Shown here: positions 4,093 to 41,446 of the stretch, one piece after another
How the letters are laid out: each line of letters starts with the position of its first letter
How positions within the stretch are numbered: the first letter of the stretch is position 1
DNA from: a virus
Lineage: Duplodnaviria; Caudoviricetes
Direction: 5' to 3' (one strand)
IMG/VR virus record: IMGVR_UViG_3300044953_000493
Coordinates: 1 to 59,970 of that record
Length of the DNA stretch: 59,970 bases
The notes under the pieces: model-generated
Databases searched by the model: none
Seen by the model: the letters and a program-made list of their open reading frames with translations, nothing else
What the model was told of the DNA's origin: nothing
Position numbers and translations under genes: made by a program

Positions 4093-4317
4093 TTAAGATT
4101 TTTCAATTAAATTACGCAGTAATAATTTAATTTCATCTAAATCATTTTTTATATGAGAAACATCATCTTCAAGATTTTTTATTTTTTCATTTTCATTTGT
4201 TTTTATGTTTCGTCTATTTAAATATTCTTGATACTCTATCATATTTGTATTAATAATTGAATTTGTTTTAGAGTCTCTTAAAAGGTGAGAATGACCTTCA
4301 ACTTTTATATAATTCAT
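4093..4317 (-). CDS. conserved small coiled-coil hypothetical protein
   Basis: IKVEGHSHLLRDSKTNSIIN N-terminus; usual position upstream of gp13 in cyanomyoviruses. Confidence 0.8.
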   Translation of the reverse strand: MNYIKVEGHSHLLRDSKTNSIINTNMIEYQEYLNRRNIKTNENEKIKNLEDDVSHIKNDLDEIKLLLRNLIEKS

Positions 4318-4318
4318 A

Positions 4319-7300
4319 TTATGCTAATGCAATTACTCTTAAATCCTTAAATCTTGGAACATAAACTTGATTTGTAGATGTCATAATAATTTTAATTCGA
4401 TAAGATCTAAATGCAGGTAATTGATCTGCAGTAAATGTATATTCACTAAATGGGACATCGTTTTGTGAAAATCCAGAAATTGATGTTAATGGAACAAATG
4501 TATCTGGGTGTCCATTGTTGTTTTGAACATCGATTACTTGTCCTCTGCTATTAAGATTTTCATATCCAGGAAATGGAATAAAAATAGGATTAAAGTTTTC
4601 ATTTTCACTGATTGCATAAAATGCACGAATATCAGAATAAAGATTATTATATGCATTGAGTAATATTTTAATCGATGTTCCTGGATTTTCTAAAGTAATT
4701 TCCTTCGAAAGATACTGAAATGCAGTTGGATCATCAAATATACTATTAACTCTTGAATCTTCTGCATAATTTGTAATTAAACTATTAACTCGATTTGAAG
4801 TTAATATTACACTTACTCTTTGAGTATCGATAACTGGACTTAATCTACTATCAATTGTATTTAAAAATACTCTTAAATTCATTGATTTATTGCCTGGAAG
4901 TGTAGAAAGGTATTGAGTTTCATTCACTTTCGATGCGATTATTCTTGGACTATCAAGATAATTTACTTGATTTAATGTAATATTATCAAATCCAGTATCA
5001 ATAAATGGTATTTCATTTCCACTAATACTGGATGCAGTTATTGTTCTAATTTCTGAACTCAGTGATGTTCCAGTTATGGTAACATTTTGTACCATTGGAG
5101 TAATAATTTCAAATGGCATATTTTGTGATGCTTTTACATTATATCCTCCTGCAGATTTTGTCTGATTCAAATAAAGAATGGGATATCCAGATGATGTACT
5201 TCTTGCTGTTCCAGTATTCGATGAAGTATCTAATTTGATTGTATAAGAATCAAATGTAATTGAATTTGCTGTAGTTATATCTGATAAATTATGAGTCTTA
5301 TTTATTCTTCTTAGAGAAACTCCAGCCAATTCATACTTATAAACTGGAGTTCCAGTTACGTAGTTAATTGGATTTGAACCTCTTATAATTTTACCACCAA
5401 TGGAACCAGTAAAAGTTGATGTATATGAAATAATTTCATTTCCAATTAAAATATATCCTACATTTGTTGTTCCTACACCAACATTTTCAAAAATTGAAAA
5501 TGAAGAAGAATCATCAACAAGAATTGCTGATGTGGAATCTGAAGTATAGTCTGATGTTAATTTTGTTGGTTTAACATCGGAAATTGCTCCAGAAATTGAT
5601 ACCAGATTTGTGTTTGAATACATTCCATGATTTTTATGATTTACCACGATACTTAATCCATCACTTACTACATCAATAGTAGAAATTAAAACATTTCCCC
5701 CATAAGCAGAATTTAAAGTTGTCTTAACTCCAGAGTTATTAATGTATTGAACAATTTTACCGGCACCAGTTATAAAATCTCCTTGAACATTATCAAGAAT
5801 TAATTGATCGACTCCTATAATATTACTAACAGAAAATCTTGCATTTTGTCCAATTGTAAGGCTACCAATCGTTGTAATTCCAAGAACATCACCAACTTGA
5901 TATCCAGATCCACCAGAAACAATTGTAACTCCTGTAGATACAACTGAACCATTTGATATTGTTATATTTGCCGTTGCTCCTTTTCCATTTCCGGTTATTG
6001 TGTCTAAATTTACGGAACTGTACGTAGCAGATCCTGATGATGGAGTATAACCAATACCAGCATTAATTATGCTTAATGTACCTGTTGATATTCCTGCACT
6101 TCCAACATAATTACCAGTTGCATTACTTCCTAATTGAAGGATAGTATTTCCAAAAGTTAACCCACTATCTTGTACCGTTGTTCCCAATCCTACTCTAATT
6201 TTTCTTGAATTTAATTTCAAAGAATCTGGAAGTAAAGTTGAGATCTGTTTATTTCCTTCTGTTAATTCTGGACTATAAAATTCTACAGAACCAGATTGAA
6301 TGAAATCAGCTCTATAAAGTGTGAATTTTAAATCTTCCCACTGACTTGATTCCCAAGTAGAAGCATTTTGAGATTTAAATAGAGAACCTAAAGTTGGTTG
6401 ATTTGAAATAAATGTCTGAGTTAAAAGATCATTTTCACCAATTCTACAAATATAAACACTATATTTTGTAGAATTTGATGCAAGACAAACACAATATTCT
6501 TGACCACCCTCAAGATATACTGGTGCCTTAAATACAAATGATGTCGCAACAGATCCATCATTAGATGTAGAAATTTGATTGGGTTCTAATATAATTTCTG
6601 AAAAAGGAAGAATTTTTGTTGTTGGAAACCCTCCCTGCATAGTCCTAATCTGGAAAGTTACAGGAATATCTACATCATCTTTCGAGTTAAAAAATACATC
6701 ACATCTTGTTAGAAATACTCCTGTAGGATCTTCCACTAAAAATGATTGTGCAAGAGGATCATACCAACCAACGATACGCTCTGAAGTATTTCCACCAATT
6801 GTTTGTGTAGAGATTACTTGTGATCCAGTTGTTCTTGAAACTGCTCTATTTTCAAATTCTTGTTTATTTTGAATTCTTGAATTTCTTACAGAAATGATAT
6901 TCTCTTGAACTGTTTCTAAAGTTCCACTTGAAATAAATCCTTCTTCAGCAATTGTTGTTGCTACATTTTGATCATTTGAATCGTTATTAATTATTGTAAA
7001 AACTTTTGATCCAGTTTCAAATTTTGGATGAATATCGATATTTGGGTTTGGTATGTTAAAACTTCCGATCAAAGTTGCAGATGCATCTGAAATTAATCTT
7101 ACATTTGTGATTAATGCCTGAGCACCACTTGTACTTCCCTTAAGAATCATTCCATCTTCAACTCTTCCACTAAATTGTCCTTGAGGTTCATTTGATAGTG
7201 AAAAAGTATCAACATTCAAGATAGTAGAAGTTGATGAGTATGTTCCCTGAAGAATTTGGTTTGTATATGGATTTGAAGAAAATGTAGTAGTTGCTACATC

Positions 7301-38789: not shown

Positions 38790-38824
38790 TTGCCAGAGTG
38801 TTGTTAGTTGTCATTGGATTTGTA

Positions 38825-39139
38825 TCATGCCAGACGCATTCCTGAGAAGAAAGGAATCGTGCCGTGATTCATGTTAACAAACCACTTACCTTTACGTTGG
38901 AAAATACCTTCATGAGGCAATCCAAAGGCACTCAGAATAGCATTGAGACGTGATTTGGTAGTCTGAGACTGCCAACCACCATCGAACAATTCGATCCAAG
39001 TTTCACCAATTCGAGCAATTAAATTACCATGCAAAAATACATCCACAACATTCGAACATGCAATCACTTCGGTATTAGCAACTTTGAGATCTTTGCCTGC
39101 TTTGATAGCAGCAATCATTTGAGATTCGATCTTACGCAT
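38825..39139 (-). CDS. conserved phage hypothetical protein (MRKIESQM...TTKSRLNA)
   Basis: VFLHGNLIA, GGWQSQTTKSRLNAIL; behind element copy 2. Confidence 0.8.
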   Translation of the reverse strand: MRKIESQMIAAIKAGKDLKVANTEVIACSNVVDVFLHGNLIARIGETWIELFDGGWQSQTTKSRLNAILSAFGLPHEGIFQRKGKWFVNMNHGTIPFFSGMRLA

Positions 39140-39237
39140 GTTGGTTGATTGGTTGTTCATACTATAGGAACAGTTTCAGGGGCCCAGTACTATGACTGAA
39201 AGGCACTCAAAGTTGAGACAGAATGAAAGTATTCACC

Positions 39238-39315
39238 TGGTGGGGACAGTCGGACTCGAACCGACAAAGTTAAAGTTGGCGCGCCAGCTTCAACCAATTC
39301 CGCCAAGGTGCCCCC
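39238..39315 (-). ncRNA. tRNA-like RNA with acceptor stem, T-arm and encoded CCA but no canonical anticodon arm
   Basis: GGGGGCA/TGTCCCC 7-bp stem, GTCGG-TTCGAGT-CCGAC T-arm, A-CCA end; central GGTTGAAGCTGG-CGCG-CCAACTTTAACT hairpin. Confidence 0.7.
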
Positions 39316-39389
39316 ATGTGCCAGATGATCGCTGGGAGCATGAAATCAAACTCCCACTATCGGGACACTTTCGGGGGCCCTATTAGTAT

Positions 39390-39800
39390 AAAGAACCTTA
39401 TATGGCCTTAAATTTATAGATACTAAAAAACCTTCGAATTACATCGATAATTTCAAAAGCACACAAGAAACTATTATCGGAATCCGAATTTTTTATATAA
39501 GATCTTATTAAAGTAAACTCACTCTTTATATATTTCCAAGTTGTTGAGACTTGACGATTTTATTGCGCCGGAGACCGCGTTCTAACTCCCTCTTTTTATA
39601 ACAAAAGTTTAAGTTTAATGATACCACGATGTATCACTCAACTCATTTGAATTTTAGAATCATTCAGTCTGAGTAACTTAATACTTATCATACAGGGAGT
39701 TCTTTTTATCCACTGTTAGAAGACTTATCTCACCGGGCAAAGCCGTCTGTTGTGCTCCTATGGGAAAGAACTATATAAACATTAAGCTTAAGTTTCTTTT
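39390..39800 (-). ncRNA. candidate ~410-nt structured non-coding RNA
   Basis: No ORF of 60 aa or more; TATAAATA at 39818-39825; terminal complementarity and several internal helices. Confidence 0.55.
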
Positions 39801-39817
39801 CTGTGATTCTACGATTC

Positions 39818-39825
39818 TATTTATA
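39818..39825 (-). promoter_or_regulatory. late promoter TATAAATA pointing into the ORF-free segment
   Basis: Exact T4 late consensus just downstream of the stop at 39830. Confidence 0.7.
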
Positions 39826-39829
39826 CAAT

Positions 39830-40003
39830 TTACCATCTTTCAGGCCGACTGAGATCCTCAATATATGCCTCACAATTTTCTGCAGGTTCTAATTCAAATA
39901 ACTTTTCCCAGTCTAATTGATGTGGATCAAAATCATTCAAAACATTAAGTTCTAATGTCACTCTATATCTTTGTTTTTGGGCTTGAGAATACGCAACAGA
40001 CAT
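39830..40003 (-). CDS. conserved hypothetical protein (MSVAYSQAQKQRYRVTLEL...DFDPHQLDW)
   Basis: Likely start at 40003; TTGACA-N17-TATCAT promoter at 40032-40060. Confidence 0.75.
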   Translation of the reverse strand: MSVAYSQAQKQRYRVTLELNVLNDFDPHQLDWEKLFELEPAENCEAYIEDLSRPERW

Positions 40004-40149
40004 AATTGATGCTCCATTGATGTATGAGAACATGATAAGATATCTTGAGTTAATTGTCAAGCATCCTTAAAGATATTTATGAAATTTTTGTGTTTTTGAA
40101 TGTGACTGTGAAATTTTGTAATTCTGGTGTCATGAGTTTTTCTGAGGCA

Positions 40150-40178
40150 TTGACATTTCAGCGAGTTTATGATATTAT
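40150..40178 (+). promoter_or_regulatory. plus-strand sigma70-type promoter TTGACA-N17-TATTAT with extended -10 TG
   Basis: Near-perfect consensus, opposite to all genes and divergent from the promoter at 40032-40060. Confidence 0.65.
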
Positions 40179-40201
40179 GCGCGCAAAGATCACAAGAACT
40201 C

Positions 40202-40298
40202 AAGACATTTATAATACATTAAATCACTCAAGAACGCATAAGACATTTATAATACATTAAATCACTCAAGAACGCATAAGACATTTATAGTGCATTAA
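40202..40298. repeat. 38-bp tandem repeat, about 2.5 copies
   Basis: AAGACATTTATAATACATTAAATCACTCAAGAACGCAT at 40202 and 40240, partial at 40278. Confidence 0.9.
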
Positions 40299-40412
40299 TT
40301 CTCAATAATATCACCTAATTGATTCTCAATAATCAAACTTATTGAGAATGAGATTAACAACTCTTTTATATTAAATAATATATTAAAAAATAATATCATA
40401 TCAAAACAATAT

Positions 40413-40812: not shown

Positions 40813-41115
40813 TCAACTTGGCACATTCTCATCCAAAAGTTCAGGATAATCATTTTCAATTTCAGTAATCAGTTGTGCGTCAGTATATCCGGAAAGATTA
40901 TCTTCTAAATAATATCCTACAATACGCATCAAATCTTTAATGTCCATATCATCTAATATACTATCAATATCAGTATATGAGGAACAATCGAAAAAATTTT
41001 CTTCTAAATAATCTCCTACAATACGCATCAAATCTTTAATGTCCATATCATCTAATATACGATCAATATAAGCATCAAGAATTGTTTGTCGATTGAAATG
41101 AGTGTGTGTGTTCAT
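40813..41115 (-). CDS. acidic hypothetical protein with an internal duplication
   Basis: Likely start MNTHTH at 41115; ILDDMDIKDLMRIVG occurs twice (offset 99 nt). Confidence 0.7.
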   Translation of the reverse strand: MNTHTHFNRQTILDAYIDRILDDMDIKDLMRIVGDYLEENFFDCSSYTDIDSILDDMDIKDLMRIVGYYLEDNLSGYTDAQLITEIENDYPELLDENVPS

Positions 41116-41143
41116 GATTGAAAAAGTTGTTGATTGTTTTGAT

Positions 41144-41311
41144 TTATCGAGAAGGAAAGTTTGTACAAATAGCATCACAAATAATCCGAGTGAGATCATT
41201 CATTTGATCGGGATATTTATTCTTCCAAGTATCATAAAAGAAACTTTCAACTATACATTCAACATCATTCATTAACTGTTCACGAGCAGTTAACATATCA
41301 AGTTTGTTCAT
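41144..41311 (-). CDS. small hypothetical protein (MNKLDMLTAREQLMNDVECIVE...)
   Basis: 55-aa ORF read manually; first gene behind element copy 4. Confidence 0.7.
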   Translation of the reverse strand: MNKLDMLTAREQLMNDVECIVESFFYDTWKNKYPDQMNDLTRIICDAICTNFPSR

Positions 41312-41446
41312 TGTTTTTGAATTGAAAGAGTTGTTGATTGTTTTGATACTATAGGGACACTTTCAGGGGCCCAAAGAAAAAGAAGATTTAAGAGACAAAT
41401 AATCAAATATATTCATCTAGGCATAAACCTTCATAAAACTCATTCT

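Follow-up and report, generated by a model that had tools for sequence, protein, structure and literature searches.

Background

GOLLD and ROOL are large orphan RNAs that are frequent in phages and are often encoded beside tRNA genes, a setting that is typical of them and not defining. Few environmental viruses have been studied as thoroughly as the T4-like cyanophages, for which, to our knowledge, the RNAs described so far comprise tRNAs, a small number of riboswitch-like motifs and antisense RNAs; we know of no virion-assembly or packaging RNA in this group. Non-coding RNAs of T4-like cyanophages named in the text of PMC9964418 are the CfrI antisense RNA, PhotoRC-II, wcaG and a glutamine riboswitch, which are described there as identified by Rfam search. 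The text of PMC10690425 reports 8,495 unnamed candidate structured RNAs from IMG/VR and names no cyanophage late RNA, the candidate list itself being supplementary; the RNA described here may be listed unnamed among those candidates. A full-text literature search turned up no report of a structured late RNA in cyanophages.

The window, by which the whole 59,970-nt stretch of viral DNA analysed here is meant, is an IMG/VR virus record with a CheckV completeness of 28%. A sequence-only reading had put forward the region at 39390-39825 as a possibly undescribed structured phage RNA. That proposal was borne out in the present analysis: the region is free of long or conserved ORFs, carries a late promoter word, has no match in Rfam and has covarying relatives. 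Judged from these comparisons, it is probably a stand-alone gene for an uncatalogued structured non-coding RNA family of freshwater T4-like cyanophages. The evidence from the window alone is only suggestive, and the feature is considered to exceed chance because it is conserved and covaries in relatives, not on account of the fold of the window by itself.

Origin and orientation of the window

A 1.3-kb stretch around the RNA locus matched 173 GenBank phage records, all titled Synechococcus phage, Cyanophage or Prochlorococcus phage; among the 30 matches listed, similarity was confined to the neighbouring 111-aa gene, which was assigned to the Pfam family 'Kyanoviridae Gp96' (E 9.6e-39). The remaining small neighbour genes were assigned to PHROGs of unknown function, and the large ORFs of the window were all on the minus strand. 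Based on the phage matches, the Gp96 family and the minus-strand ORFs, the window is by its sequence a fragment of a T4-like cyanophage (Kyanoviridae), and the RNA would accordingly be a minus-strand product. Two further features of the window were recorded in passing. A ~45-nt unit, caagacatttataatacattaaatcactcaagaacgcataa, was seen by eye to be repeated in tandem about two and a half times at 40195-40295, and a 128-aa ORF at 40813-41199 (minus strand) contained an internal duplication (ILDDMDIKDLMRIVG twice) with two stretches matching DUF7326.

Extent and layout of the predicted RNA

An exact copy of the T4-type late promoter word TATAAATA, which we take to be the T4 late promoter, is present at 39818-39825 on the minus strand, as had been noted from the sequence. 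The predicted RNA runs from 39811 to 39424 on the minus strand (~388 nt), its 5' end being placed a few bases past the promoter and its 3' end at a U-run; the two ends, transcription itself and its late timing are all inferred from these sequence features. In the proposed mechanism, transcription by the late machinery of the phage would begin at TATAAATA, and the transcript would fold in three parts: a 5' rod, a core followed by an A-rich tail and a hairpin designated P4, and a 3' hairpin with a U-run. The same layout was common to the family, in the order TATAAATA, rod-like 5' domain, ~41-nt core, covarying hairpin P4, and 3' hairpin with U-rich tail. The promoter word was found as a single copy 100-233 nt 5' of the core in 22 of 22 relatives and 124-154 nt 5' of it in 12 of 12 others, and was also present in a divergent copy, L020; in the window and relatives alike an exact TATAAATA thus lies shortly 5' of the predicted start, as in a T4-type late unit. 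The 5' domain occurred in two forms, a long one in the window, L087, L094, L089 and L090 and a short one in all others, giving predicted transcripts of ~390 nt in the window and about 260-300 nt for the short form.

The folding check suggested by the sequence-only reading gave a mixed result: the minus strand of the region folded modestly beyond shuffled sequence (z -2.14; 4 of 100 shuffles as good), and the plus strand folded no better than shuffles (z -0.16).

Distribution of relatives

Eighty loci encoding relatives of the Gp96-family gene were examined for the RNA. Two of them, L008 and L009, carried the RNA region at 96.8% identity over 476 nt, directly upstream of the Gp96-family gene, which was itself only 81.6% identical between the window and these loci. 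Exact-pattern scans with pieces of a G+C-rich stretch located the core in 34 IMG/VR contigs, a lower bound on the family size; the flanks of the family contigs were too divergent to align, with the exception of the promoter word and the core. A covariance model of the core and P4 identified L020 as a further divergent copy (17 bits, E 0.17), in which direct reading showed TATAAATA, a 5' rod, GGGGAGUU-N10-CUCCGUCGCAAUAAAA, a 3' hairpin and a U-rich tail; the model had no match in the other 77 Gp96-relative loci.

The proposed Rfam check likewise returned no match to the RNA. Searches with cmscan against Rfam 15, whose families include GOLLD, ROOL, 6S, tmRNA, RNase P, group I introns and riboswitches, at gathering thresholds gave no matches in the whole window and none in the loci of 13 relatives (117,823 bases), and at E values up to 10 two weak matches were found in 38800-40400, both outside the RNA. 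No match to the core was obtained by blastn against 50,697 GenBank phage records. In the nearest isolates, S-CREM1 and DSL-LC02, no model match was found within 4 kb of the Gp96 homologue (best E 9.3 and 4.8, respectively). In DSL-LC02 (L181), which is a freshwater isolate, 858 nt without an annotated CDS lie upstream of the Gp96 homologue (4310-5167) and are unrelated to the RNA. Among 185,579 species genomes, one for each species, 54 stretches fitted the loosest pattern and none of the 54 had the rest of the core. Most of these loosest-pattern matches (L107-L158) belonged to a high-copy repeat of Dehalococcoidia, CCCTCTCCC...GGGAGAGGGAGTT..GCAAAGGTCTCC, present in up to 5 copies in 8 kb, and are chance matches.

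The stretch was found in 18 DNA runs, 16 of them lake-water and 2 freshwater-sediment metagenomes, one possibly being the source of the window itself. In six RNA runs a small fraction of the words of the stretch was present. Four of these were examined: three (X19, X22 and X23, from three studies) each yielded one contig of 151-209 nt over the core (39550-39605) and over no other part of the RNA, with flanks resembling L089, L096 and L090 and not the window, and the fourth (X21) yielded no contig. These contigs are a weak hint that family members are transcribed, being short and shallow, showing neither ends nor strand, and coming from libraries of a kind that DNA can contaminate. Run X22 also contained contigs of 60-69 nt, at a depth of up to about 2,000, that matched 39891-39936, within a 76-aa gene, at less than 90% identity.

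Conserved core and hairpin P4

The core of the window, AAGAGGGAGUUAGAACGCGGUCUCCGGCGCAAUAAAAUCGU (39594-39554, minus strand), consists of GGGAGUU, a 10-nt loop and CUCC, a possible 4-bp hairpin, followed by GGCGCAAUAAAAUCGU. Among 28 distinct aligned sequences, 32 columns of its ~41 nt were invariant, and the covariance-model score of the window core was 90.9 bits. The core is predicted to form a small GGAG/CUCC hairpin, followed by the A-rich tail and the variable P4; a local hairpin is favoured because L020 keeps GGAG and CUCC while its core loop differs. A pseudoknot inside the core, between the loop sequence CGCGG and a downstream GGCGC, was considered and rejected, the variable positions being uncorrelated across the 28 sequences. 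The motif GGGAGTT-N(6-16)-CTCC had two matches in the window against 0.05 expected (0 of 100 shuffles gave two), and among the other phage loci a second copy was found in L160 only.

P4 lies directly 3' of the core (39554-39536, minus strand) as UCAAGU/ACUUGG and corresponds to one of the helices listed in the sequence-only reading (39549-39553/39537-39541). Its sequence was variable between copies, and GAAA usually followed the hairpin, as it does in the window. Of 156 alignment cells, 92.3% were paired, with L092 and L095 out of register and scored as unpaired, and two-sided changes were present at 5 of 6 pairs, in 34 cells. The covariation score was reached by 0 of 500 shuffles, and sliding the partner by 1-3 columns reduced pairing to 25-62%; the shuffle control ignores the relatedness of the sequences, and this and the other covariation figures are accordingly strong hints and not probabilities. 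At one P4 position U-G was the most frequent pair (22 of 26 sequences); this pair would be a mismatch on the opposite strand, and it points to the minus strand for the RNA. Compensatory-looking pairs between the A-rich stretch before the core or the post-P4 motif and the U-rich 3' tail were seen by eye in L090, L092, L159, L089 and L166; the same pairing fails in L101, L167 and the window, and the U-rich tail overlaps possible downstream promoter elements.

The 5' domain

The outermost helix of the long-form 5' domain, P0, is predicted to form between the 5' leader (39798-39773, minus strand) and the stretch directly 3' of P1 (39694-39661). By duplex computation it reached -12.6 kcal/mol in the window (z -2.1) and -14.9 to -24.4 kcal/mol in the other four long-form copies (z -3.2 to -7.3); on direct reading, the P0 strands of L087 and L094 differed in sequence yet were complementary. 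P1 follows with eight pairs between AGUUCUUU (39772-39765) and AAAGAACU (39705-39698); it was 100% paired in 5 sequences, both sides were changed at 4 of 8 pairs, and the helix reads AAUUCUAU/AUAGAAUU in L089 and AACUUUAU/AUAAAGUU in L090. Within P1, five pairs between AGGAG (39759-39755) and CUUCU (39722-39718) make up Pa, which was also 100% paired with both sides changed at 3 of 5 pairs. The tip of the rod (39755-39724) is made up of a conserved GCACAACAG, a small CGG/CCG hairpin and a conserved CCGGUGAGAUAAG; the tip contained invariant columns, and its hairpin was 93.3% paired with two-sided changes at no pair. Together, P0, P1, Pa and the tip would form one long irregular rod with conserved internal loops.

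A CCCU bulge between P1 and P0 (39697-39694) was invariant in 5 of 5 long-form copies. In a constrained fold it may pair with AGGG of the core; both sides are invariant. Two lineage-specific hairpins (39674-39617), complementary in the window, were present in the window and L087 only and were absent or different in L094, L089 and L090.

Covariation was counted separately for the two forms. The long-form 5' domain was 98.9% paired with two-sided changes at 7 of 18 pairs, and 0 of 500 shuffles reached its score, a count made on 5 sequences from about four lineages with the window included. The tip of the short-form 5' domain, counted over four short helices, 12 pairs and 18 distinct rows, was 93.9% paired with two-sided changes at 6 of 12 pairs, and 0 of 500 shuffles reached its score on 4 of 5 measures. 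Sliding the partners by 1-3 columns in the three covariation counts (P4 included) lowered pairing to 23-62%. Covariation in the collected relatives, a check that the sequence-only reading had called for, was strong.

The ten complementarities that the same reading had listed all exist on the minus strand (six perfect, the others with 10 of 11, 7 of 12 and 6 of 7 pairs and one bulged), and they fared unevenly in the comparison with relatives. Besides P4, the helix at 39765-39772/39698-39705, which had been entered merely as a competitor, turned out to be P1 and to covary. The helix with which it was held to compete, 39694-39701/39584-39591, overlaps P1, and what remains of it is the CCCU bulge. 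Pairing of the two ends of the RNA, a main element of that proposal, was not upheld: its 3' partner (39390-39418) lies past the U-run, where it coincides in part with both a second late-like word and the next gene's leader, and in 2 of 5 long-form copies the 5' leader paired with the post-terminator stretch no better than shuffles, while with the post-P1 stretch it paired in 5 of 5. The helix 39751-39756/39458-39463 was likewise unsupported, direct reading showing that it is not kept in L087, L089 or L090. Three listed helices within 39619-39674 belong to the insert common only to the window and its 97%-identical relative L087, in which the two are identical. The proposed kissing loop, 39728-39736 with 39568-39574 (CCGGUGAGA with UCUCCGG), retains a G-U pair on an A to G change in L089 and loses a pair on a G to A change in L090, and its 5' partner is absent from the short-form copies. 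A helix proposed by RNAalifold, UUCUAAC/GUUAGAA, was rejected, as it is not kept in L089 or L090.

The 3' end

The 3' end of the predicted RNA in the window (39488-39425, minus strand) is terminator-like, an A+U-rich hairpin of -11.6 kcal/mol (39488-39433) being followed by the U-run GUUUUUU (39432-39425); this hairpin and U-run would end the transcript. Between 30 and 80 variable bases separate P4 from the 3' hairpin. By a loose rule, applied without a shuffle control, a 3' hairpin with a T-rich tail was present in 28 of 28 distinct sequences, and in 24 of 28 the hairpin lay 120-153 nt past the core. A stricter terminator scan, in which three G-C pairs were required, did not flag the 3' hairpin of the window. 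The second late-like word, CTATAAATT, is located beyond the U-run at 39419-39411. In L160 and L162-L170 a conserved inverted repeat, TGTGCCAGTTG..AA.TGGCACAAGACCCC, was observed directly past the U-rich tail.

The tRNA-like cassette

A 170-nt cassette (39355-39186, minus strand) lies between the RNA and the Gp96-family gene of the window and is absent from L008 and L009. Direct repeats of a 25-nt leader motif border it on either side (39380-39356 and 39185-39161). Its tRNA-like part (39315-39238) combines an acceptor stem of 7 bp with a T arm, whose loop is UUCGAGU, and an encoded CCA, and it has a long arm closed by a 4-nt terminal loop at the position of the anticodon arm. No tRNA or tmRNA was found in the window by ARAGORN, no minus-strand Rfam match was obtained at the tRNA-like part, and a comparison with the tRNA-Leu of L087 showed the two to be unrelated. 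The start of the cassette (39355-39335) holds the hairpin GGGAGUU-N10-CUCC, the same motif as in the RNA core, and beyond this common hairpin no similarity was found between cassette and RNA. The sequence-only reading had given weight to the adjacency of the RNA to a tRNA-like gene. This setting did not extend to the family: ARAGORN found a tRNA gene in 1 of 35 RNA loci, and the tRNA-like gene of the window is an insert missing in the closest relatives.

The leader motif, GGGCCCC.GAAA.TGT.CC.ATAGT, was observed just before the ATG of several small genes of the window (39356-39380, 39161-39185 and 41347-41373) and also in L089, L094 and L020. It coincides with the breakpoint between 97% and 82% identity to L008 and L009. 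Repeated regulatory cassettes have been described in the hyperplastic regions of T4-type phages, and by analogy the leader motif may act as a recombination cassette.

Neighbouring genes and alternative readings

The commonest neighbour of the RNA was a gene for a phrog_12516 protein (55-76 aa), which 26 of 35 loci carry within ~4 kb. The succession of promoter, conserved structured core, terminator-like hairpin and gene resembles that of a riboswitch, the flanking genes are all co-oriented with the RNA, and in L008, L009, L089 and L094 a gene begins shortly past the U-run. These features would suit a cis-acting 5' leader (riboswitch or attenuator) in which the core would be the sensor of a ligand or factor and the 3' hairpin plus U-run the expression platform that governs read-through into the next gene. 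Such a leader is nonetheless a rather improbable explanation of the locus. The downstream genes differ between loci: L008 and L009 have the Gp96-family gene there, L089 and L094 have other genes, and further loci have the phrog_12516 gene. This last gene is the immediate upstream neighbour of the RNA in the window, L087, L089, L094 and L163, and it lies on the downstream side in a dozen more. In several loci the interval from the RNA to the next gene contains, by eye, sigma-70-like promoters or repeat arrays, among them TTGACA-17-TATAAT/TAGAAT in L097 and L098, and in the window the 170-nt cassette separates the two. No competing anti-terminator was seen by eye, the terminator hairpin being set apart from the core by P4 and the 30-80 nt that follow it, and no Rfam riboswitch was matched. 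The varying downstream genes, the sigma-70-like promoters and the cassette favour a stand-alone unit over a riboswitch-like leader. The repeat arrays mentioned above (TTCATTCGTGATTAGATAAG.TTCGTAT), observed in L083-L085, L090, L096, L100 and L161, may be promoter or operator repeats.

Considerably less probable is an element that acts as DNA, either a recombination or regulatory cassette of a hypervariable small-gene region or a protein-binding site. A stretch of ~41 bp in which 32 columns are invariant while the flanks diverge would suit such an element, as would the mosaic breakpoint at this locus (identity to L008 and L009 is 96.8% across the RNA and 81.6% across the next gene) and the repeated leader motifs that flank the adjoining insertion. 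Against this, the covarying helices use G-U pairs that work on one strand only, the two strands fold differently, and the conserved promoter word and terminator-like end keep fixed positions.

A small protein gene, or the remains of one, is very hard to reconcile with the alignment. The sequence-only reading had stated that the region holds no ORF; this was correct for long or conserved ORFs, and not for a 33-aa GTG frame over the core at 39526-39627, the sole minus-strand ORF of at least 25 aa inside the region. One frame, and no other, can be read through the core in all copies, but 21 of 28 distinct sequences lack any ATG, GTG or TTG in it from the preceding stop up to the core, and the length of the hairpin past the core varies by non-multiples of three; no conserved ORF was found in the RNA unit among the 28 distinct sequences. 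An ordinary AT-rich spacer with chance complementarities, with which the unenriched promoter word (7 matches to TATAAATA in the window against 9.07 expected) and the modest fold score (z -2.14) would agree, is refuted by the conservation of the unit, with covariation, in 35 other contigs, and its probability is negligible.

Possible function

For the stand-alone RNA gene thus preferred, the role that we favour, at well below an even chance, is that of a trans-acting late RNA in which the core hairpin and tail would be the binding site for a conserved phage or host protein and the rod would serve as a scaffold. The near-invariance of ~41 nt amid freely covarying helices suggests direct recognition of the bases by a conserved partner, and the recurrence of the hairpin motif at the start of the tRNA-like cassette is what a reusable recognition module would produce. 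Action in trans by base-pairing with another RNA is less likely, and on balance unlikely, because no target was found. Mimicry of a host sequence or an antisense target was considered and rejected: in a BLAST search with the core, 61 genomes from the family of a Prochlorococcus-titled genome yielded nothing better than E 0.054, and recurring matches of 17-18 nt fell in different ORFs at the 6 places read, as expected of chance in G+C-rich genomes. No host gene copied by the RNA and no long antisense target were seen in the species-genome scan or in the 61-genome BLAST.

A bolder and doubtful extension of the protein-binding role is that the RNA represents a new class of late phage ribonucleoprotein, its core hairpin capturing, in the late phase of infection, a conserved factor of the host or the phage. 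Such a particle could serve as a decoy for the machinery of host transcription, translation or RNA decay, or the RNA could instead be a component of the assembly or packaging of T4-like cyanophage virions. Were this so, the hairpin on the tRNA-like cassette would mark a second RNA as cargo of the same partner.

A stand-alone late structured RNA would add a new player to the late infection of freshwater picocyanobacteria. The invariance of the core amid diverged flanks points to a tightly constrained partner, and the core hairpin could be used as bait. What is new here is the RNA family, which has no detectable relative in Rfam, GenBank phages or the 185,579 species genomes, as distinct from a demonstrated mechanism.

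Comparison with known systems

As functional analogies only, the rod-like domain with conserved internal loops is reminiscent of 6S RNA, and a late or assembly-linked phage RNA of the phi29 packaging RNA; the cyanophage late RNA differs from both in matching no Rfam family. It is like GOLLD and ROOL in being a phage-borne, stand-alone, structured, ORF-free RNA without known function, and unlike them in being smaller (about 260-390 nt), in having no Rfam match and in having a tRNA neighbour in 1 of 35 loci. The candidates reported in the text of PMC10690425 share with it their source, IMG/VR contigs, and the kind of evidence, covariation. The RNAs named in the text of PMC9964418 come from the same virus group and likewise are conserved RNA structures in intergenic DNA; whereas those are Rfam families or gene-tied antisense RNAs, the late RNA appears to have a promoter and a terminator-like end of its own and has varying neighbours.
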